Shown: positions 13,244 through 30,101 of the stretch, in pieces
Position numbering within the stretch: the first letter of the stretch is position 1
How the letters are laid out: every line of letters begins with the position of its first letter
Assembly (NCBI GenBank): GCA_001599295.1
Contig: BCGN01000001.1
Span: forward strand, 1,860,001-1,924,000
Reading direction: 5' to 3'
Source: Sporopachydermia quercuum
Taxonomy: Eukaryota
Length of the DNA: 64,000 nucleotides
Notes under the pieces: generated by a model
Told to the model about the DNA's origin: nothing
The model's database searches: none
Seen by the model: only the letters and a program-made list of their open reading frames with translations
Made by a program: the position numbers and the translations under genes

Positions 13244-14182
<939 letters not shown>

Positions 14183-15809: not shown

Positions 15810-17012
15810 ATGGTGAGTAGAGCAAGCTGACTATGAGGACTTTTGTGGTCAATAGCGACCAATTACGACTGTTTATTATATATAAACACGTTAGAAATGA
15901 ATGACAGGTATAATTTCTCGAGTGAATGAATACGAGGACTTTAATTATTTTATTAATTTGTAATTATATTGATTACTTGAGCTGTTATGTCTTGCTCATC
16001 ATAACTAAGGAATTACGTCTTCCCTTGATTATTAGTTGGCTGAGTTATTATTCTTCAAGAGTATTCTTGAAGAATAATAACTGTAGAGTGAAACTGAAGT
16101 CTTCTTTAAAAACAACGGAGTTTTCTGAATTGTTTTACTGACATTGTGGTTTTGCTTGATGACACAGCCCGCTAGTTATAAATCCAAGAAGGTAGCTGCT
16201 GCTCCTTTGACTACTCAACGCGGAAAGTCTAATTCTCAAAAGGTATGTTTATGTTATGTTATTATTTCCATCTGTCAACAACAAATTCAACATATTAACC
16301 CGTTTAGAATCTTTTGGTTGGCTCAAAACCTAGAATTTTTGGTATTGGCCAAGCCATTCAACCAAAGAGAAACTTATCGAGATTCGTAAAGTGTCCCGAA
16401 TATGTTAGATTACAAAGAGAAAAAAAGATCTTGAACATTAGATTGAAAGTACCTCCTGCAATCTCTCAATTCCAATATACATTAGATAGGAATACGGCAG
16501 CCCAAGCATTCAAATTATTCAACAAGTACAGACCAGAAACAAGTGCCGAGAAGAAAGAGCGTCTCACCAAGGAAGCGACAGCAATTGCCGATGGAAAGAA
16601 GAGAGAAGACGTTTCTGCTAATCTTCATGTTGTCAAGTACGGGTTGAACCATGTCGTTTCTCTTATCGAAAACAGAAAAGTTAAACTGGTGTTAATTGCT
16701 AGTAATGTTGATCCTATTGAGTTAGTACTTTTCTTGCCCGCTTTATGTAGCAAGATGGGTGTTCCATATGCAATTGTTAAAGGTAAAGCTAGGTTGGGTA
16801 CCTTAGTCCACTTGAAAGCATCGACCGTTGCTGCTTTAACTGAAGTTAGACCAGAAGATGAGGTATCTTTATCTACATTGATTTCTACTATTAACTCAAA
16901 TTTCACTGAGAAATACGAAGAAAACAGAAAGCATTGGGGCGGTGGTGTGATGGGTGCTAAGACTCAAGCTATGTTAGCGAAAAGGAAAGGCCAGTACTCT
17001 TCATCTGTATGA
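15810..17012 (+). CDS. RPL8: 60S ribosomal protein eL8 (L8/L7a), divergent copy; exons 15810-15812, 16168-16242, 16308-17012 (alternative start ATG 16159)
   Basis: M|PASYKSKKVAAAPL...|NLLVGSKPRIFGIGQAIQPKRNLSRFVKCPEYVRLQR...VDPIELV...GVPYAIVKGKARLGTLV...HWGGG; introns GTGAGT..TACTGAC..CAG and GTATGT..TATTAAC..TAG. Confidence 0.9.
16043..16082. repeat. Perfect 18-bp inverted repeat with 4-nt spacer
   Basis: AGTTATTATTCTTCAAGA-gtat-TCTTGAAGAATAATAACT. Confidence 0.95.
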
Positions 17013-17915: not shown

Positions 17916-18671
17916 ATGTCACAAAAAATCATAGACTTATTTAACGACTTACTGGAGACTGTCACTCCTACCGTGGCCAAGGCCGAGGTATGTTTCATGA
18001 TTACGAAAACTTAGGTTAAAGTGACAATAAGAGCAGTTTGTACTGACAATAAGTAGGAAGACGAAGAAGAAGCTGAAGAAGAAGCTGAAGAAGAAGCCGC
18101 TGAAGAAGCTGAAGCTGAAGAGGAGGAAGAAGAAGATGATGACGATGATGATGATGATGATGATGATGAAGTAGAAGATCCTCTTGACAAAATTAGAGAA
18201 GGTATGTTCAGGACTAGCTATCTGGAGCCCAAAATGAAATCAACTTTTCAAATCTTTTTGCTAACAGATCTGTAGCTTGTGCTGAAACCGCTGTCTGTCA
18301 CCCATTCAAACATCATTTTGAAGAATGTGTTGAAAGAGTAACTCAAGCTCAAGAAGAAGACGGTTATGCTGAGTTGGAATATAAAGAAGGTATGCAAAAC
18401 TTAGGAATTTAGCAGTAGAGAGTCATATCTTGAAGTTCGGTTCAAGTTTTCTGAAAGATCCGTACTAACATTGTTATAGATTGTGTTGAAGAATTGTAAG
18501 TTTTCATTGGATTCATGCCACCGGATACATTTCAATTTCCAAACTCCAGGAACCTGACCTGTTTGACAACCAACTTTTTTGAGATTGATTTTACTAACAA
18601 TGCTAAGTTTCCATCTCCAACATTGTATCAACGATTGTGCTGCACCCAAGTTGTTCAGACTTTTGAAATGA
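17916..18671 (+). CDS. QCR6: Cytochrome bc1 hinge subunit 6, 5 exons (17916-17987, 18057-18201, 18276-18389, 18480-18495, 18608-18671)
   Basis: Spliced: MSQKIIDLFNDLLETVTPTVAKAE|acidic E/D tract..VEDPLDKIRE|ACAETAVCHPFKHHFEECVERV...YKE|DCVEEF|FHLQHCINDCAAPKLFRLLK. All four introns have a GT donor and a branch motif. Confidence 0.93.
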
Positions 18672-19293
18672 ACCAATAACAGTTGCTACCCAAAATTCAT
18701 TACTTCTTCAATTGTCACTGATACATCTTTTTGCTTTGTTCCCTGGTTTACTATCACAAGTTTTTGATTTGTCTTGCATTTCTACGTGACCTTTGGACAA
18801 GTACTATAGTTTCTGATGATTGTTGAGGTTTATTCTTGTTCAATTCATGTCCACTTTCTCAACATGTATAAAGCTGAAATGCCAATATTTATCTGGGTTA
18901 TATTTGACCTATGATGAGGTAATTTTTCATTGGATATTTTGTAGCGTATAAGCGTTCAATAAGAAACATACCGAAGTAATTATTCAGTATCATAGAATCA
19001 CTAATTTGCGAAATGTAGTGTGATACTACTTTATTTCATTAATTAACCTCTGTAAGCAAAAATAGTCAATAAAACCTAATTTAAAAGGCACAAACTGTTT
19101 TCTTTTGATTAGTAGAGTTAAAGGAAAACTAGCTTCTCAACTAAGTTATAGGCCTCTATCTCACTCACTGCTCATCTATACAAGCATTAGAGTTAGTGAT
19201 TTTTTGATTTTCTACCTACAACATCTAATAATTTGATGGATAATCCAAAATAGAAACCTAATGCCAATAAAATTCAAAAACATACTTTCTATG

Positions 19294-19400
19294 TCACGTG
19301 CCCGATATTAGGTCCATTTGAACCTAAAACGTCACTGCTGAGAACCCACGCACATTTTTTCGTTTTGATTTTTCGAAACACTGCACTATCCACGCACCTT
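19294..19400 (+). promoter_or_regulatory. RP-gene promoter motifs: Cbf1-type TCACGTG, TTAGGT-N8-ACCTAA inverted pair, two CCACGCAC repeats (Rap1-like)
   Basis: Motifs read directly 300-410 bp upstream of RPL29; factor identities inferred. Confidence 0.4.
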
Positions 19401-19700
19401 TCTAGGAACAGGTCTAGTAAGGAGCTTTAGCATATCGAGAGCATACTCAGTCGATATCTTACGACATCATAGAATAGTTAGCGAGTACTCTGGCTGGTTA
19501 TGCATTCAAAAGTTAGACCTTTTAGACCATAATCAACCACATATAAATACGTCGTATGTCCATTTTTACTATCATTCACAAATCTTAGGTAATTGAAGTA
19601 CACTGTTTGTGCATACATCTTGCTGTTACGATTTGTTCTTCTAATTGAAGTTGCATCTTTAACAATTTCGAGATATAATTATTAACAACATATACAGAAG

Positions 19701-19960
19701 ATGTCTAAATCTAAGAATCACACAAACCACAACCAAATCAAGAAGGCTCACCGTGTATGTATTTTGAAAGCTGGACAAAGTGTTTGAGTTGCATTGTTCC
19801 TTTTGCTAACAATAAGTTATAGAATGGTATCAAGAAGCCCAAGACCTTCAAGTATCCGTCTCTAAAGGGTGTTGATGCTAAGTTCAGAAGAAACCACAAG
19901 TTTGCTCTTCACGGAACCCAAAAGGCATTGGCTGCTAAGAGAGCTGAAGCTAAGGCTTAG
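19701..19960 (+). CDS. RPL29: 60S ribosomal protein eL29, 2 coding exons (19701-19754, 19823-19960)
   Basis: MSKSKNHTNHNQIKKAHR|NGIKKPKTFKYPSLKGVDAKFRRNHKFALHGTQKALAAKRAEAKA; intron GTATGT..GCTAAC..TAG. Confidence 0.97.
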
Positions 19961-20509
19961 ACTTGGTGTTGATTAATTCATTCAATCATTCGATAGGAGA
20001 GAAGATGAAATACTTTATAGGCTTTAGTGAATGTTAATATATGAAATAATTATTGAGACGATTACTTTGACATAGATCATCAAATCAAGCAGCCATTGAT
20101 CCATCAAGCGTTCTCCTGAATTATTAATTGTGCTGCAATAACGTCCTAAATATCTTAACCATTTTTTGATTAAATGTTTTAAGAAAGTGTACTCGACATT
20201 GGCTGTAAAGCTTCTTGATATTTTGAAACGTACTATTTTTCGTTTTATGCTACTATTTGTGTTTACTTTCTTATTGTATTTATTCATACTCCTTTCTGCA
20301 GTTTGAACTAGACGTATACTGTTTGTGCAACATTAAATTAGTAGTAATTGTATCCCAACAACCTTTGTTTGGCGCTTAATCGTACCTTCCTCAAAAAATT
20401 CTTTTTGTATTCTTACACATTCGTGTTGTTTACTTTCCTGCAATCTATTCTTTTATATAGTGCAATAGATCATACATTAAATTCTGTATTAGAGAATGTT
20501 ATAAAGACG

Positions 20510-21864
20510 ATGAGTAAAATCGAGTCAATTAAAGTTGAACTGGGTTTAATAGAGATCCATCAAACAGCAAATATGGCCGGTATTGAACAAATGGATGAGT
20601 CTTCAGAAGGTAAAATTGATGAAAAGATCCAAGGGATAGAATCCCAAAAGGATCAAAAGGATGCAGTTCAAGGGGACACATCTGATATTACAGAAGTCGT
20701 TGTTGATCCTCCAAAAAGATTATATGCTCGCAATGTGGACAGTCAAGTGACCGAATCGGTTTTGGAGGATTTTGTCAAATTAGCAGGATTGAACACGTAT
20801 AAAAACTCCTTTCCAGGTATATTTTTCAGGTTTTAAATACTAACATGAATGGTAATAAAGNGTATCTGTCTTAGTTCCTACTAAAACAGTAAGAAAGTTG
20901 GTCAAAAAGGAAAAGAAACCAATGGGTATAGCCTTTCTTGACTTTCAAAGTTCTGAAGACGCTGAGAAAGCGCTGAAACTTATTAATGGACAAACATTGT
21001 TGGGAAAGCAGTTGTCACTGAAATATGCCGAGCCATACGAACCAAAACCACGAAGAAGATACAAGCCAAAGTCAAAGAAAGAGAAAGATGATGAAGCAAA
21101 ACATGATAGAATCCTTGACGGATCTGAATCAGCGGCACCAGTTCTCGGAAAAGATAAAGCAAAAGGTGCATGTTTATCTTTAACACCTTCTTGCATTGGA
21201 AAGGTAAACCAAACTATTCTCTCTATCTCTCGATCTCCCTTTCTTCAAGATCACAACTAACAATACAATATGTAGAAAAGCGATGAACAAAAGTGCACAA
21301 AACAAGAAAAAGATGATAACAAAAACGGCAGCAAAGACGAGTCAAATGGAAATGGTAGACGGAGAACTAGATATCGTCATCTATCCTTCCAAAGGAGAAA
21401 TCAGACATATTCTGACTTCTCGATCTGGATATCAAACATTGCAAACGAAACAACTAAAGAACAAGTAAGTCATATCCTAGCGATTCTTTTCAAATAATGA
21501 GCAATTTTTAACAATGATATTCTAGCTGGACCAACTTTTGGCTCCTTATGAGCCATCTACCGTATCTTTGAAGTCCACATTCCACAATAGTGATAAGCTC
21601 TATGCTATTGTTGATTTCGATACAACTGGGAAGCAGCTTAAATGCATTGAAGATCTCAACAAAAGAAAATTGAACAATTTGAAGTTATCTGTCAAAAAGG
21701 CAAGAATTTCTAAAATAGCAGATAATACCAACAATGACGTTCCAAAATTAGATGAGTTGCAAACCGAAACATCAAAAGACGANGAAACCACCCTTTCCAA
21801 CGCACTTCAGGAAGAGAACAAAGAAAAACATGAACAATCTGCTGCGCCGGAAATCAATAAATAA
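20510..21864 (+). CDS. RRT5: Two-RRM RNA-binding protein, Rrt5-like; exons approx. 20510-20796, 20861-21167 (or -21203), 21276-21464, 21526-21864
   Basis: RRM1 KRLYARNV...T|VSVLVPTKTVR...PMGIAFLDFQSSEDAEKALKLINGQTLLGKQLSLKYAEPY; RRM2 SIWISNIANETTKEQ|LDQLLAPY...YAIVDF...LKLSVKKAR; sits between RPL29 and RPL2 as RRT5 does in S. cerevisiae. Confidence 0.75.
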
Positions 21865-22356
21865 AGTAAAAAAGTCCAGTGTAGAAACACNTCTTACAAA
21901 TTTCTTCCTCGTCAATNACTGATTCAATAGAATTGCATAGCTATGTAGTGACTACTTAGATGCTTATAAATTTTTTCTTGATGTATCTTCTTCATTTTAA
22001 CACTTAGCTATGAAAAAGCATTAATCAATTAAAGAAAAATCACAACCCTTTTATTATATCACGTGTACTAATACAGGTCTCATATACAAGCACATCTCCA
22101 ATTTTATCATACCATGCTCAACTATACTAAGGTAAATTTACTGAATGTTTTGGCAAAATTGCACACTGACTCCGTTTCACACTCGAAAATATTCCAATTC
22201 TCAGTTTGAGATAATGAACGGTTGAGAGCCAGCGAGCCACTCAAAACATTATCAAAGATTATCACTACTTTAATATCTACTTGCTCATAAGAAGTAGTAC
22301 ACGATCTTGATTCAGATAATCATACCTAAGGTACAATTCATTAAAAATCATCAACA

Positions 22357-23484
22357 ATGGGTATGTAATTATAAGATGTGTTCCAAAAGATTAGTAGTAT
22401 TCAGTGAACAGCTAGCTGGCTTTGGGTAAATGGGATAGTGATGTGACATAGTATTACTTTCAACTACAACATCAATAATTTGGGGACCAAATATAGGAAA
22501 GAACTAGGAAGACTCACAGTAATGCCTGTACAAATAATATCAGGATCACATTCCAATGCTGTTATTGTTACGTGGTTAGAATTTCCAACAACCGAGGAAT
22601 TATGCGACTGAGGATGACAATTAGGGAAGATAATTTAACATGAAACAAGTTGAAAGTCATTATGATACTATCTTGCAATACAATGTAATTCAAATTGAGA
22701 CTTAATACTAACAATATGAATAGGTCGTGTTATTCGTAATCAAAGAAAGGGTGCTGGATCTATCTTCACTTCCCACACCCGTCTCAGAAAGGGTGCTGCC
22801 AAGTTGAGAACCTTGGATTATGCTGAAAAGCATGGATATATTAGAGGTGTTGTGAAGCAAATCATTCATGATCCTGGTAGAGGAGCTCCTCTTGCCAAGG
22901 TTGCTTTCAGAGATCCTTACAAATACAAGATCCGTGAAGAAACTTTCATTGCCAATGAAGGTTTGTACACTGGTCAATTCGTTTATGCCGGTAAGAAGGC
23001 TTCTTTGAACGTTGGTAACGTTTTACCTTTAGGTTCCGTCCCTGAAGGTACCATTCTCAGTAACGTTGAAGAAAAGACTGGTGACAGAGGTGCTTTAGGT
23101 AGAACTTCCGGTAACTACGTTATCGTCATTGGACACAACCCTGATGAAGGTAAGACCCGTGTTAAGCTTCCTTCTGGAGCTAAGAAGATTATCTCTTCCA
23201 ACGCTAGAGGTGTCATTGGTGTTGTTGCAGGTGGTGGTCGTATTGATAAGCCATTGTTGAAGGCAGGTCGTGCTTTCCACAAATACAAGGTTAAGAGAAA
23301 CTCTTGGCCTAAGACTCGTGGTGTGGCCATGAACCCCGTTGACCATCCCCATGGAGGTGGTAACCATCAACATATTGGTAAGGCTTCTACCATCAGCAGA
23401 GGTGCTGTTTCCGGTCAAAAGGCTGGTCTCATTGCCGCCAGAAGAACTGGTCTTCTCAGAGGTTCTCAAAAGACTAAGGAGTAA
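22357..23484 (+). CDS. RPL2: 60S ribosomal protein uL2, 2 exons (22357-22360, 22724-23484)
   Basis: ATGG|GTATGT...TACTAAC..TAG|GTCGT gives [35 protein letters not shown] signature; strong codon bias. Confidence 0.98.
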
Positions 23485-23740
23485 ATTAGTTCAAATAATC
23501 ATTAATAAATTTAAATGATAATTCCTAAATCTATTTATGTCTGTAACCTCAATATGTTCATTTTCTTGTAGACTACCTTTATTTATTGTATGCTTTGATA
23601 ATTAACACTTGTTTTTCATTTTTCACTCCTCAAATCCTAGGTTTTATCAGCAATTATTGAATACATCATGCACACTATAACGCCAGATATTCCACTAGAT
23701 GGGAAATTGTAAAATTTTATTTATTCTATTGCATATGTAC

Positions 23741-25469
23741 TTAAAATTCTGGTCTATCAGTATCATCCTCAGGAAGTCTAATACCCCCACTTGGAGTGAA
23801 CTTTTTAAAATTCATCGACTTAAGATCTTCAATTCTTATCGTGAACAAATGTGATAGAGATCCTTTAGACCATAAAGTAGAGAAAATTAGGATTATATTG
23901 AAAACAGCTAAAATAATGAATGGGGCACCATCCCAAATGTCAGAAAGATAGCCACCAATTTTAGTAACTACCAGAACTCCAACACCCCCACATAAGCCAT
24001 GCACACCAGCAATAGCACCATTGAAAGTTCTCTTTCTATCTGTGCAAAGAGACATGGCACTGATAATGACTCCGATTTGACCTACTCCCATCATAGATGC
24101 AAATAATACGGCTCCAACTCCATTAGGATTATTGATAGCAGCAAAACCAACACTGCCGACAATTCCAAATGTAGAAGCAAATAGTATCAAGTTGCGACGT
24201 CCAAACTTGTCTGCAGCATAACCAGCCAGAGGTGCCAACAGTAAGCCAACAGTTTGTGATATACCAGTAATCATAGATGCCTTGATGAATGCTTGCGGAC
24301 AGCCTGTCTTCATTTCATCACCTGATACTAATGAGCACTCTCCTCTGTCCAAATACCAAGTATTGACATAAAGAGGAATAAAAACGGCACCAATAACTGT
24401 TGAAGTTCTTGAAACAAAAGCTGCCACATAACTAAGAGCAATTTTTTCATCTTCTGCAGCGGCTGTAAAACCGTGCTTGAGAAGTTCCAAATAGGATTCC
24501 TTGGCATCATCTTCAATAATGGGATCAAATTCACCATCTCTCTCTAGAAATGGAAGCTTGACTAAAGAAGTAATTCGTTTGGCAGGATCGGCTTTTAAAA
24601 TGAAGAATAATCCAACGCTGCAAATCATACACAAACTTCCGATAATGTAATATGAATCTTTCAAAGCCTTAGCTGGATCTTTATTTTCCTTATCCAGTGA
24701 GGTAGCCATTGGTAAGAAGACAAATACTGAAAATACAGCTCCCAAACCAGTACTAACACCTACTAATCCTGCCATTTTTCCATTTCTTTTGAATCCATCG
24801 TTATCAAGGGCTTCCGCACCTTCATCACCCTCGTACTCATCTTGTCTCCCGAGAAAAGGTATCTTGAAATTCCAACTGAACCCAGACGTGGAAATATCAG
24901 CTAACATTGCTGTCATCATTGAACCACTAAAATGTTAGTATTGTTTTGAACTGACATCAGATTTACAGCCCGAACTCCTGATTAAATAATTTCAAACTGA
25001 AACATACACTGCAGAGGCTCCTAGAGCAAAAACCAGCCTAATGAGTATCATGTCAGGATAGACATTTTTACTCACAGTAAAAAGGACAGTACTAAAACCT
25101 ACGATAAATAAACCTATCACAGTGCAAGGCCTTGTTCCTACTTTATCACTGAGTGTTCCAAATAAAGGACAAACTACGATACTAAGCAGTTCATCAGCAA
25201 AACCCAAGGTACCAACATAATCACCCTTGAAGCACTGTTAATATCATCTCAATATATCTCCAATTTTGCCCAAAAACACAGTAGAATAGTCCACAAGTAT
25301 TATTACTTACAATGTGCTTAGTAATGCCCAATACATTGGAGATGAAAAATGATTGCGTGGAACTGACAAAAACCACAAAAGCAATCGTCAAGAAGCACGT
25401 TGCATAAAATCCAACGGCATTTAGCCTGGTCCAATGAGATGAGGCGCTCGTTATTGAAAAAGCATCCAT
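23741..25469 (-). CDS. Major facilitator superfamily transporter, 3 exons (25469-25311, 25225-25008, 24926-23741)
   Basis: Three ORF fragments join in frame through introns 25310-25226 and 25007-24927; MFS motif A twice (GTLSDKVGTR, GYAADKFGRR); about 12 TM helices. Confidence 0.88.
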
Positions 25470-26496
25470 CTTACTAGTTCCTATTTATGTTTTAGAAAGA
25501 GGATTGAACGAACTTGCTTGCTTGATCTAAGTATGATATCACACTAGAATTGGTAGTTGGGTATACTCCTTGTACTATATCGTGTTTTATTCAATCGCAA
25601 AACACTAAATAGTAGTCAAGAGCTACACATCAAATAAGAAGTAGGTTTATTTTCCAGATAGAAATATAAATTACCTCGAGAAATTTGATTAATCCAATAG
25701 TAGAATCTAAAGTGATGACCTAAGATATTTCTCAAATTCAATACCAAATTTGTACAAGTTTCTTTCCTTAAAATCACCAATTACAAATATTTCATTTTTC
25801 CCTTTCATTATTAATCTTCTTCCTACCAATTAAAACTATTCGTAGACTTCTCTGTGAGTTATCCTTTATGTTTTCGGTCTTTGCTTGATAGTCCGACATC
25901 ATTGTAACCCCTGAAGATACTTAACACGGCTTTAATGAACATGTTAACTGAAGAAGATTAAAGTTATCTATTTGATCTCCCGATACAATTCACGTGACGC
26001 CATTAAGCCTTTAAAAGGAAAAGATAGCATAATCAAAATATCATTTGAAGTGAGACGTTATGTTTTTGAAAAAGTTGTTTCCGTGACAACAATCTAAATG
26101 AGGCAAACATCAACATTAAACATTTACCATTTTCCAAATCAAGAACTAAGCTCTTTTTNACTACACACGAAATGAATGTTTCTATCACTTCTTAAATGAA
26201 CTAAGAAAAGATTCTTTAATGATGAGAGAAAGGCCAAAGATCCATTAGTTGATTTCTTAAACATTGCTATTATATATTGTCAATTTCTTGTTCAAATCTC
26301 AAGTTAAGTTCACCATAGTTATACCCTAATGAAAAGCCATCTTGTAAAATAGAAACACCAAATCGTGTAATTATAGAGATACGTGACTATATCATATCAA
26401 TCATCTTATATTTTTATACCCAATCAATACTCTCGGACATACCTTGATATATGGTATTTACCAGAATCGTTTTGAATCAAGTTCAATAAGTTAACA

Positions 26497-29400
26497 ATGA
26501 AAGTGGAAGAACTTATCATAGATGGATTCAAATCTTATGCAACAAGAACAGTAATATCGGGATGGGATAGCTCTTTCAACTGTATCACTGGCTTGAACGG
26601 ATCAGGTAAATCAAATATTCTTGATGCCATATGTTTTGTTCTTGGTATCACAACTATGAGTCTAGTCAGAGCACAAAACCTACAAGATCTTATTTACAAG
26701 CGAGGTCAGGCTGGAGTAACCAAGGCCAGTGTTACGATTGTTTTCGATAATTCAGATAAATCCACATCGCCAATTGGTTTTGAGCAATGTGCTACAATTA
26801 GTGTTACCAGACAAATTGTCATGGGAGGAACAAGCAAATATCTGATCAATGGTCACCGTGCCCAGCAACAAACCGTTTTACATCTATTCCAGTCAGTTCA
26901 ATTAAACATCAACAACCCTAATTTTTTGATTATGCAAGGTAAAATCACCAAAGTCTTGAATATGAAGCCTCAAGAGACATTGTCATTAATTGAAGAAGCC
27001 GCTGGAACAAAAATGTTTGAAGATAGAAGAGAGAAAGCAGAAAAAACAATGGCTAAAAAAGAGACTAAGCTGACTGAAATCCGATCTCTANTACAAGAAG
27101 AAATTGAGCCCAGGCTGGATCAACTGAGATCTGAAAAAAGACTGTTTTTGGAGTATCAACAGACCCAGACCGACTTAGAAAAGCTTTCTCGAATTGTCAC
27201 AGCATATGATTACAAAAGACTGACAGACCGTTTCCAAAATCAAACATGTTATTTGAACGAACAACAACAAAAACTTTCAATATTGGAAGCCGATGCGGAG
27301 AAGTATTTACAAGAAATTGGTAGATTAACAGAAGAAACCAGACAGGCCCGTTTAACAAAGGAAAAGGAAATAAAAAAAGGTAGTGCATTGAAGAATCTAG
27401 AGCATGAAGAAGTTGAGCTTTCAAATGAGTTGACAAGGATCAAGGCATCTTTAGATCTGAAGTTAACTGCAATTGCTGCTGAGGAAAAGAAATTTATAGC
27501 TGCACAAGAGTTAATTGCTAAACTAACCCTAGAACTTTCTGCTGGTGATGAAAAGTTCAAACTTGCCGAACAAACGTATGAGAACTGTAAAAAACAACTG
27601 GAAGATTTGAATTCTCAATATAGTAGGAAAGATGAACTTCTGAGTACTTTGAGAACTGGTCTTTCAGCATCTGGAGGTACTGATGGTGGTTTTATGGGAC
27701 AATTGGAAGAAGTTAAAGATAAAATTGCCAACGTTCATGTAGAAATTGGAAAGTCAAANCTGCGAATTGAATACTTGCAAAAAGAAATTGAAAAAGACAA
27801 GACTAAAGTGGCTAAATCTGAAGCTGAGAACCAAAGACTATTAGGAGACGTCGATAATTTAAAAGCAAAGAAAGGTACACTGGCAACTAAGTTATCACAG
27901 CTTGGTTGGATTGAGGGCAAAGAGCAAGAGCTTGTTCAGAAACAGAGACATATTGAAACCCAGATTCGTAATGTCACATCAGAATTAGAAAACATGAAAA
28001 GAAAAATCGCTGGTTTGGAGTTCAACTATACCAAGCCACATCCTAATTTTAACCCCAAATCTGTGAAAGGCCTAGCAGCACAGTTATTCACTTTAGATGA
28101 AACTAATTTTCCAGCTGCCACTGCATTGGAAATTTGTGCTGGTGGCAGACTGTACAATGTTGTTGTTGACAATGAGAACACTGGTTCTGAGTTGTTACAA
28201 GGTGGTAACCTGAGAAAAAGAGTTACGATCATTCCTTTAAACAAGGTCCGTGCTTTTAAAGCCAGTGCAGAAAAGTTAGGTGCTGCTAAGAATTTGGGAC
28301 CTGGAAAAGTCAATTTGGCATTAGACCTAATTGGATACGAAGATGATGTTTCTGCTGCTATGGAATACATATTCGGCTCAACATTAATATGCCAAGATGC
28401 TGAAACAGCAAAACAAGTTACATTCAATCCCCAAATTTGGCTCCCAAGTGTGACACTTGATGGTGATTACTATGATCCATCAGGTACACTCTCAGGCGGC
28501 AGTAAAATGTCCAGCAATGGTGTTCTCATAACCCTTCAGGAAGTCAATAAGTTGAATAACAAGTTGAGGGAATTGAAACCAGAGCACAAGCTACTTGNTC
28601 TTGATATTGAAAGAGAACGAGAGTTAAGCAGTAGGTCAAAAGAACTTGTTACTGAACTGAATCTCACAGCTCACCAAATCAAACTCAATGTTGCCCAACT
28701 GGAAAGTAATAGCTCTGCGTTGATAATTAAGGCCAATGAACAAAGACACGAAGAGATTCTTCAATTGAAACAAGTTATTCACAAGAAGCAGCAAGAACTT
28801 GTTATTCTAAATGAAGACTCCCGACGGATTGAGACAGACATGATTGAAATAACCTCTAACAAAGAGGAGAAAATTAAGAAAATGGAAGCTGAACTAACTT
28901 CATTAAAGAAACAGTTGAATGAACTAAACAGAACAGTTCGTGAAAAGCAGGCAGAATTCCAAGAGTACCAAATTGAGAGAGCTCAAATGGTCGATGATAT
29001 AAACTCGAGCAAAGAAGTTTCTGACATTAGCAAGAAGACCGGCGAAGAAATCCAGAAAGAATGTGAAATAATGAAGCAGAAAACGTGTGAATTAGAAACT
29101 CAAAGACAACAAATTCTGCAAAACATTCAAACCGAAAAGGCTAAAGCCGCCGATCTTGATTCAGAAATCAAAGAGCTCGAAGAAATCCTCAGTCGAAAGA
29201 CTGTAATGGCTAATGAAGCGAAACTAGAAGGCCAAAAGCTTCGTCAACAGTTGAGTAAATTTTCTGAAGAGTCTTCCAGTTTAAGAGCAAGACTAGAAAG
29301 AATTGTTGAGGGAAGCGATTGGGTTGTCGATGAGAATTTGGTAGATAATATTATTGTTTCTAATTCTAATATTAATCTTAACGAATATCGCAGCCAAATG

Positions 29401-30101
29401 AGTCATTTGTCGGAAAGATTTAACGGAATGCAGAAGAAGGTCAATTCCAAAGTCATGAACATGATCGATAACGTCGAGAAGAAGGAAGCCTCATTGAAGA
29501 CAATGATCAAAACAATTGAGAAAGATAAACATAAGATCGAGGAAACTATTATCACTCTTAATGAATATAAAAGGAAAGCTCTTCTTAAAACTTATGAAAA
29601 AGTTTCAGTGTATGTACATTTTTATCGAATGAAGAATTATTTCGAAGGTAATTTTGGTCNGCTTATTTATCAATTATTAACTTATCATCTAGCGATTTTG
29701 GTCAAATTTTCTCCGATTTGTTAGTCGGAAGTTTCGCCAAATTAGTACCAGTAGACGAAAATGATATTACTAAAGGTTTAGATATCAAAGTGAGATTAGG
29801 AAAAGTATGGAAACAGAGTTTAGTAGAGTTATCCGGCGGCCAAAGATCACTAATTGCTTTATCTTTGATTCTTTCATTACTTCAATTCAAACCTGCTCCT
29901 ATGTATATTCTAGATGAAGTTGATGCAGCATTAGATTTGAGTCATACCCAAAACATTGGTCATTTAATCAAGACAAGATTCAAAGGCTCCCAATTTATTG
30001 TTGTCAGTCTGAAAGAAGGATTCTTTTCCAACGCTAACAGGGTTTTCAAAGCTCGTTTCCAGGATGGTACATCACATGTTTCATGTATATCAGCAGCATA
30101 A
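26497..30101 (+). CDS. SMC2: Condensin subunit Smc2, 2 exons (26497-29609, 29693-30101)
   Basis: Walker A GLNGSGKS, hinge ([17 protein letters not shown]), signature LSGGQRS, Walker [12 protein letters not shown]; 83-nt intron GTATGT..TATTAAC..TAG restores [14 protein letters not shown]. Confidence 0.97.

Follow-up and report, generated by a model that had tools for sequence, protein, structure and literature searches.

Why a ribosomal protein gene with an intact reading frame should carry changes at near-invariant positions and codons that its neighbours avoid is the question raised by the eL8 (RPL8) gene in a 64,000-nt stretch of Sporopachydermia quercuum DNA (the window, meaning the whole stretch analysed). 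A sequence-only reading had taken the gene for a low-expression second copy, either a candidate for specialised ribosomes or a decaying duplicate. The gene lies on the forward strand, with 783 nt of coding sequence for 260 amino acids in three exons: exon 1 (15810..15812) is the start codon only, exon 2 lies at 16168..16242, and exon 3 (16308..17012) holds the L7Ae domain and the stop codon. Intron 1 (15813..16167; 355 nt, GTGAGT..CAG) was placed after the ATG as in the second genomic copy and in the fungal loci; it is highly structured and has a branch-point candidate at 16136-16142. Intron 2 (16243..16307; 65 nt, GTATGT..TAG) stands at an ancestral position and is missing from the second copy; a non-canonical branch candidate was seen at 16293, and the intron can be folded into a single long hairpin. 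The claim that frame and splice sites are intact held: the frame is open, the introns are spliceable, the four splice sites are intact, the coding sequence has no internal stop and no N, and a search of the gene for pseudogene lesions (stops, frameshifts, broken splice sites) found none. Across the 64-kb window there are 79 N bases, mostly single and spread out, with none inside the eL8 gene. The protein matched Pfam Ribosomal_L7Ae at 78.8 bits, above the cut-off, and has the eL8 N-terminal extension; its closest relatives of solved structure are yeast eL8 chains from solved ribosomes. CTG was read as Leu, since, of the 13 CTG codons in conserved columns of SMC2, 10 stand opposite Leu, which ruled out alternative CUG codes for the host.

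Searching the whole genome for eL8 returned one further gene, G000:C3:1573493-1574179 (the C3 copy), which is canonical and strongly codon-biased and brings the genome total to two. This copy, together with changes in the window copy that are private relative to C3 and 120 homologues, bears out the view that the window gene is not the main RPL8. Leave-out CAI was 0.387 for the window copy and 0.673 for the C3 copy, as expected from the suspected weak bias; reference values, with codon references resting on 7 genes, were 0.64-0.74 for RPL2, RPL29, RPL30 and RPS12 and 0.25-0.35 for 16 ordinary genes. The CAI of the window copy nevertheless exceeds background usage (2000 draws, p = 0.0005). GGG, GCG, ACG and TCG occur 1, 2, 1 and 2 times in the window copy and not at all in RPL2, as had been noted, nor in the C3 copy. 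Codon bias, and codon bias only, suggests that the window copy may be expressed at a low level. The promoter argument fared less well: no CACGTG is present within 700 nt upstream of the window eL8, in line with the reported lack of TCACGTG there, but the C3 copy is likewise without it, and one CACGTG lies upstream of each of RPL2, RPL29, RPL30 and RPS12. Because the motif is missing from both eL8 copies, its absence does not explain their difference.

Substitutions were judged against 120 listed eL8 homologues, the best 120 of 5545 hits in a search seeded with the C3 copy, and the set is therefore biased towards that copy. Trp at the column of W55C and Asp at that of D159N are found in 120/120 listed homologues. 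W55C, P28L, Q64E, N158S, D159N, N36I and R/K174S are each found in 0/120, in a C3-seeded set whose best match to the C3 copy is 86% and which has no close relative, and none is found in the C3 copy. The seven changes first noticed at near-invariant positions are thus private and not shared by the listed homologues; Arg 35, also counted there, is not, being common to the C3 copy and 39/120 homologues. K131N, P132L, K149R and T197A are additional private changes. Relative to the 120 homologues, 12 of 149 conserved columns are changed in the window copy and 1 of 149 in the C3 copy (median 2), and conserved columns are changed much less often than variable ones (10/141 versus 26/86, p = 8e-6). In an alignment with Snu13, eL30, Nhp2 and eS12, the kink-turn recognition helix begins as in the C3 copy and K149R lies at its end, with N158S, D159N and T197A near the hydrophobic loop. 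Residues 129-132 resemble Snu13 and residues 157-159 resemble eL30, but gene conversion was ruled out, as the synonymous bases differ.

The two copies are 78.7% identical, with pN 0.133 and pS 0.761 (saturated). They are the most divergent of nine eL8 pairs compared (81.2-96.5% identity in the others) and have the most changes at conserved columns (12 versus 0-4). Branch lengths were 0.177 for the window copy and 0.047 for the C3 copy, a 3.7-fold difference, and the relative-rate asymmetry was significant with 8/8 outgroups (p 0.0003-0.02). In a tree built from 46 of 122 rows over residues 26-252, the two copies are sisters (UFboot 98), and same-species copies also pair in every other species with two rows, a pattern that would fit repeated homogenisation. 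The pair was placed with Phaffomycetales/Saccharomycetales at a support of only 77%, and the host has no close relative among the matches (best 52% for both SMC2 and CWH41). Saturated synonymous sites with a low pN argue against an old pseudogene. The pseudogene option, for which dN/dS near 1 had been named as the sign, is contradicted by these values, which average over the entire history and are insensitive to a recent neutral phase; of the decaying-duplicate proposal, long-term decay is thereby excluded and recent decay is compatible with the data.

At the end of intron 1 a three-way RNA junction was found over the 3' splice site (whole element 16038..16169, forward strand), and its anchor pattern has a single match in the genome. 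The 5' strand of the closing helix P1 (16038..16042, forward strand) pairs with 16165-16169, made up of the acceptor CAG and the two exon bases that follow it. It is followed on the same strand by the P2 hairpin (16043..16082), with 18 Watson-Crick pairs in the window copy, and by a segment (16083..16162) that holds a linker, a P3 arm enclosing the branch point, and a kink-turn-like core. The core consists of a 3-nt bulge (16158-16160), G 16161 and A 16162, with A 16085 and U 16084 as partners. The intron-1 region of the window folds at -103.6 kcal/mol (z = -5.14, 0/100 shuffles as good), and homologous regions of the Candida-like loci L012 and L014 gave z-scores of -7.12 and -2.12. Exact motifs are shared between the intron-1 end and the introns of RPL8 copies from Candida-like yeasts. 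Long arms also form in the 5' part of the intron (window 15830-16030), and L012 and L014 share a long stem immediately before P1. Neither a model match nor a descriptor match to the element was found in the C3 intron (89 nt). The element persisted while synonymous sites saturated; the sequence-only reading had overlooked it, and it may offer a more direct explanation of the weak copy.

The same arrangement is present at the intron-1 end in filamentous fungi. P1 and P3 appear in the lowest-energy fold of 34/39 hand-picked sequences, the window included. In 25 filamentous-fungal sequences, 86.6% of cells pair in a structure drawn by hand from the same sequences that were used to score covariation, and 16/26 pairs change on both sides; 0/500 shuffles reach these values and slid controls are 46-57% paired. 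Two-sided changes occur in 7/8 modelled pairs of P2 among the homologues, and P1 is 100% paired in the 25 sequences, yet nearly invariant. Only P2 and the outer P3 are supported by covariation, because P1 and the core helix show hardly any variation. A descriptor tuned on hand-picked homologues and the window itself placed the element at the eL8 start in 46/80 fetched fungal loci and once in the window, with 0 matches elsewhere in 640,921 bases of the fetched loci and 0.01 per shuffled window; many of the 34/80 loci with no match are intronless or short of upstream DNA. Of two models built without yeast sequences, R1 missed the window element, and R2 gave it the top rank in the window with a score of just 14.4 bits (E 0.33), lower than that of an unrelated match in locus L006. 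RNAalifold by itself recovered P1 and no other helix. Independent detection of the element in the window is weak. Loci L024, L047 and L066 have a variant of the element, placed farther upstream from the acceptor, whose P1 pairs with bases of the intron and which may work by way of an alternative splice site.

An ATG inside the element core is often mis-called as the start codon, and this was used as a proxy for the element, with a DNA basis for L012, L014 and L015 only: it marks 25/161 eL8 proteins (MTQ type), and 8 more of an MIQ type were recognised by eye. By this proxy the marked proteins include those of Sugiyamaella, Nadsonia and Saitoella, and one marked copy each was counted in Millerozyma, Suhomyces, Priceomyces, S. 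amazonensis, C. theae, C. railenensis, C. fabianii and C. boidinii. Pairs with one element-bearing and one element-free copy would thus, judged by the proxy, recur among yeasts. The marked copy is the faster one in Priceomyces (0.105 versus 0.038) and scarcely faster than its partner in Millerozyma, Suhomyces and S. amazonensis; the element alone therefore does not force divergence. Two of the public eL8 annotations are fusions: P0083 has RPL29 as its partner, and P0039 a PF07106 protein.

At the sequence level only, a bulge RAU followed by GA, with A before the GRG strand, is present in 37/39 sequences, the window included; L022 and L071 have an inserted C in the core. The kink-turn pattern, in which G(1b).A(1n) comes after a 3-nt bulge beside a canonical helix, is thus present at the sequence level. 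The standard A(2b).G(2n) pair is absent, position 2n being U in 37/39, a described non-standard form (Kt-23), and with U instead of G at 2n this is a non-standard kink-turn at best. By the sequence rules in PMC5061560, the core can be read as kink-turn-like. A k-junction was ruled out because the point at which P2 joins lies past 2n, on the non-canonical side, where a third helix is misplaced for a k-junction. An intronic snoRNA was likewise rejected: no Rfam family matches the element, and the window copy lacks the box-C-like word. 5.8S rRNA was looked for and none was found.

The gene neighbourhoods suggest how the two copies arose. Downstream of the window copy lie RPL29, an RRM gene, RPL2 and SMC2, and CWH41 is the upstream neighbour of the C3 copy. 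RPL2 adjoins RPL8 in 6/11 yeast loci, in W. ciferrii RPL8 and SMC2 stand six accessions apart on a single 48-kb contig, and locus L017 has RRN6, CWH41, RPL8, the RRM gene and RPL2 in one run. CWH41 is 1-3 accession numbers from an RPL8 in Kuraishia, Babjeviella, C. arabinofermentans, Sugiyamaella, Nadsonia and two Ogataea species. On this gene order, the downstream block of the window copy is also old, the ancestral upstream neighbour CWH41 appears to have gone with the C3 copy, and a single ancestral block may have been split at RPL8, one flank being kept by each copy. The position of intron 2 is occupied in 28/33 filamentous-fungal loci and in 0/10 other yeast loci; the window copy, having kept this intron, therefore has the ancestral gene structure and C3 is the simplified copy. 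The full order 3' of RPL8 (window 17917-29724) is an acidic multi-intron gene, RPL29, the RRM gene, RPL2, an MFS transporter and SMC2. We take the acidic gene to be QCR6, and S. cerevisiae has the same order in QCR6, RPL29, RRT5, RPL2A and SMC2. A four-unit polyubiquitin gene (window 13265-14182) lies two genes upstream of RPL8 on the same strand, and S. cerevisiae UBI4 is likewise upstream of RPL8B. The SMC2 frame (window 26497-30101) stops at 1075 residues, about 95 fewer than its homologues, with an overlapping frame next (29652-30101); this may be due to an intron or to the N at 29660. L014:670-3282 has the element-bearing intron and upstream DNA of L015, but next comes an aspartyl protease gene, in which it resembles L011; either a crossover between the two RPL8 copies or a chimeric assembly produced it. 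Loci L007-L010 have an RPL2-linked, intronless RPL8, and their upstream gene, of no Pfam family, is common to L011; flanks and element have therefore been reshuffled between copies.

The reading that we favour, and hold to be slightly better supported than not, is that the window gene belongs to an old eL8 pair, of which it is the minor member, under feedback control. Its observed basis is the two copies, their gene structures, the element and its conservation, the rate asymmetry and the codon bias. Free eL8, a kink-turn binder of the L7Ae family, would most likely bind the kink-turn-like core and lock the fold, hiding the branch point and the acceptor and so blocking splicing, and the unspliced window transcript would be degraded. 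The C3 copy, having lost intron 2 and the element, would stand outside this brake as the main eL8 supplier, and eL8 from the C3 gene would keep the window copy muted. Long low expression would then have relaxed both codon bias and amino-acid constraint in the window copy, and gene conversion between the copies would have stopped, ending homogenisation. We infer the binding of eL8, the splicing block, the low expression and a back-up role of the window copy. A wider version, offered tentatively as it seems to us somewhat less probable than not, is that an ancient, unrecognised kink-turn-like clamp in ascomycete eL8 genes enables eL8 to close off the branch point and 3' splice site of its own transcript, that budding yeasts have repeatedly split into braked and unbraked copies, and that the braked window copy, diverged near the RNA-binding face, may be a conditional, functionally distinct eL8 released only when free eL8 falls.

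Several features of the window copy would also be expected of an incipient pseudogene, that is, a minor copy long constrained whose constraint has recently been lost altogether, although we consider this unlikely. About 0.035 neutral substitutions per site yield 10 conserved-column changes; 41% of runs then keep a stop-free frame and 28% a perfect P2. The conserved-column changes are chemically neutral-like (mean BLOSUM62 -0.2 versus neutral -0.32, p = 0.42), and two of them touch a helix, W52-K70 in yeast eL8, that is critical for late 60S assembly (PMC4986894), W55C lying at the start of its equivalent and Q64E within it (numbering matched through L013). An intact frame, four splice sites, 18-pair P2 and core together are a roughly 1-in-10 outcome of such decay, with indels uncounted, and the CAI of the window copy still exceeds background. 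Neutrality over a long period is excluded outright: after 270 neutral substitutions only 0.25% of runs are free of stops, and identity is down to 50%, not 79%. The same divergence, being the greatest of nine pairs with 12 conserved-column changes, might instead mark a specialised or stage-specific paralogue that gives heterogeneous ribosomes, with the intron as a switch opening under a particular condition. The rate asymmetry with 8/8 outgroups and a weak clustering of changes (131-132 and 158-159, p about 0.06) point the same way, and Ser-Asn at 158-159 is also present in the eL30 of the same genome, so that the pair may be tolerated. A companion set is missing, however: RPL2, RPL15, RPL30, RPS12, cytosolic RPL4 and the uL30 family, with family copy counts as lower bounds, are without an extra divergent copy, extra L4 and uL30 matches being presumably mitochondrial or RLP7. 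The private residues also do not recur in any of the 120 listed homologues. Nothing was found in support of the specialised-ribosome or sporulation role that had been suggested, and we regard it as distinctly improbable.

The element might also be read by another factor of the Snu13 type or give rise to its own small RNA, the copy being weak mainly from new upstream DNA after rearrangement. A box-C-like UGAUGA lies just upstream in 10/28 homologues, the branch site is CUGA, and a preprint (10.64898/2026.08.03.742641) describes 15.5K-bound mammalian intronic K-loop RNAs that suppress excision of their host intron. The window copy and 18/28 homologues lack that word, Rfam has no match, and in the examined loci the element is confined to eL8 genes; moreover, a fold that spans the acceptor and needs exon bases exists in the pre-mRNA and not in an excised RNA. 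As to rearrangement, the ancestral neighbour CWH41 is now beside the C3 copy, and loss of upstream DNA could cut expression without any part for the element. This combination seems to us very improbable.

eL8 is described as the first protein loaded on domain I of the large-subunit rRNA (PMC12825303). If the favoured reading of a feedback-controlled minor copy is true, fungal eL8 has a concrete feedback switch that is missing from S. cerevisiae-like loci such as L013, where RPL8 is intronless, and an orphan motif of 2017 gains a fold and a mechanism. It would also follow that a ribosomal protein paralogue can become divergent and weakly biased without specialisation, silenced by its brake-free twin, and such silencing would be a testable null model for specialised-ribosome claims. 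A divergent paralogue is by itself modest; the conserved splice-site fold is more interesting.

A search of the literature, subscription papers being outside its coverage, found none on splicing autoregulation of fungal eL8. Gao et al. (PMC8216456) describe structures in RPL12, RPS13, RPL7B, RPS2 and RPL9B, and RPL8 is not among the genes named there. Control by splicing has precedents in eL30, which acts on its own pre-mRNA, in uS4 and eL22, which repress the minor paralogue, and in animal eL8, which is autoregulated through splicing and NMD (PMC8047918). S. cerevisiae RPL30 is alike in that an L7Ae-family ribosomal protein blocks splicing at a kink-turn formed in its own pre-mRNA by intron and exon bases (PMC8047918, PMC5061560). 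The two are unlike in that the eL30 element is at the 5' splice site, whereas the window element, a three-way junction with putative eL8 binding, lies over the branch point and the 3' splice site. RPS9A/B and RPL22A/B are whole-genome-duplication pairs, whereas the eL8 pair is older or independent, has one copy without the element and has a minor copy diverged to 79%. What they share with it is a minor copy with an intronic structure, there repressed by the protein of the major copy (PMC8047918). The concerted evolution reported by Mullis et al. (PMC6993855) is alike in that same-species eL8 copies group together, and unlike in that homogenisation of the window/C3 pair would have ended; RPP1, RPP2, RPL9 and RPS22 are named there as duplicates that predate the whole-genome duplication, and "RPL8" does not occur in that paper's main text. 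The Candida-like loci L012, L014 and L015 have the same yeast-type core at the intron-1 end as the window copy, and L012 and L015 also adjoin RPL29, the RRM gene and RPL2; they differ in having a near-canonical protein (about 97% identical to C. albicans Rpl8B in L014 and L015) and in having lost intron 2. Li and Breaker 2017 (PMC5640933) described an rpl7-l8-s3 motif of two hairpins, intronic in L7/L8 genes, and gave no mechanism for it. The window element probably represents this motif; the intronic location and the two long hairpins are both true of the window element. The published motif lacks both a kink-turn and a helix that closes over the 3' splice site, its purine-rich part is argued to be paired, and, among the species listed, all are filamentous ascomycetes (PMC5640933). 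What appears to be new is the helix that closes over the splice site, together with the reading of the core as a kink-turn, the members from yeasts and the tie to asymmetry between paralogues.
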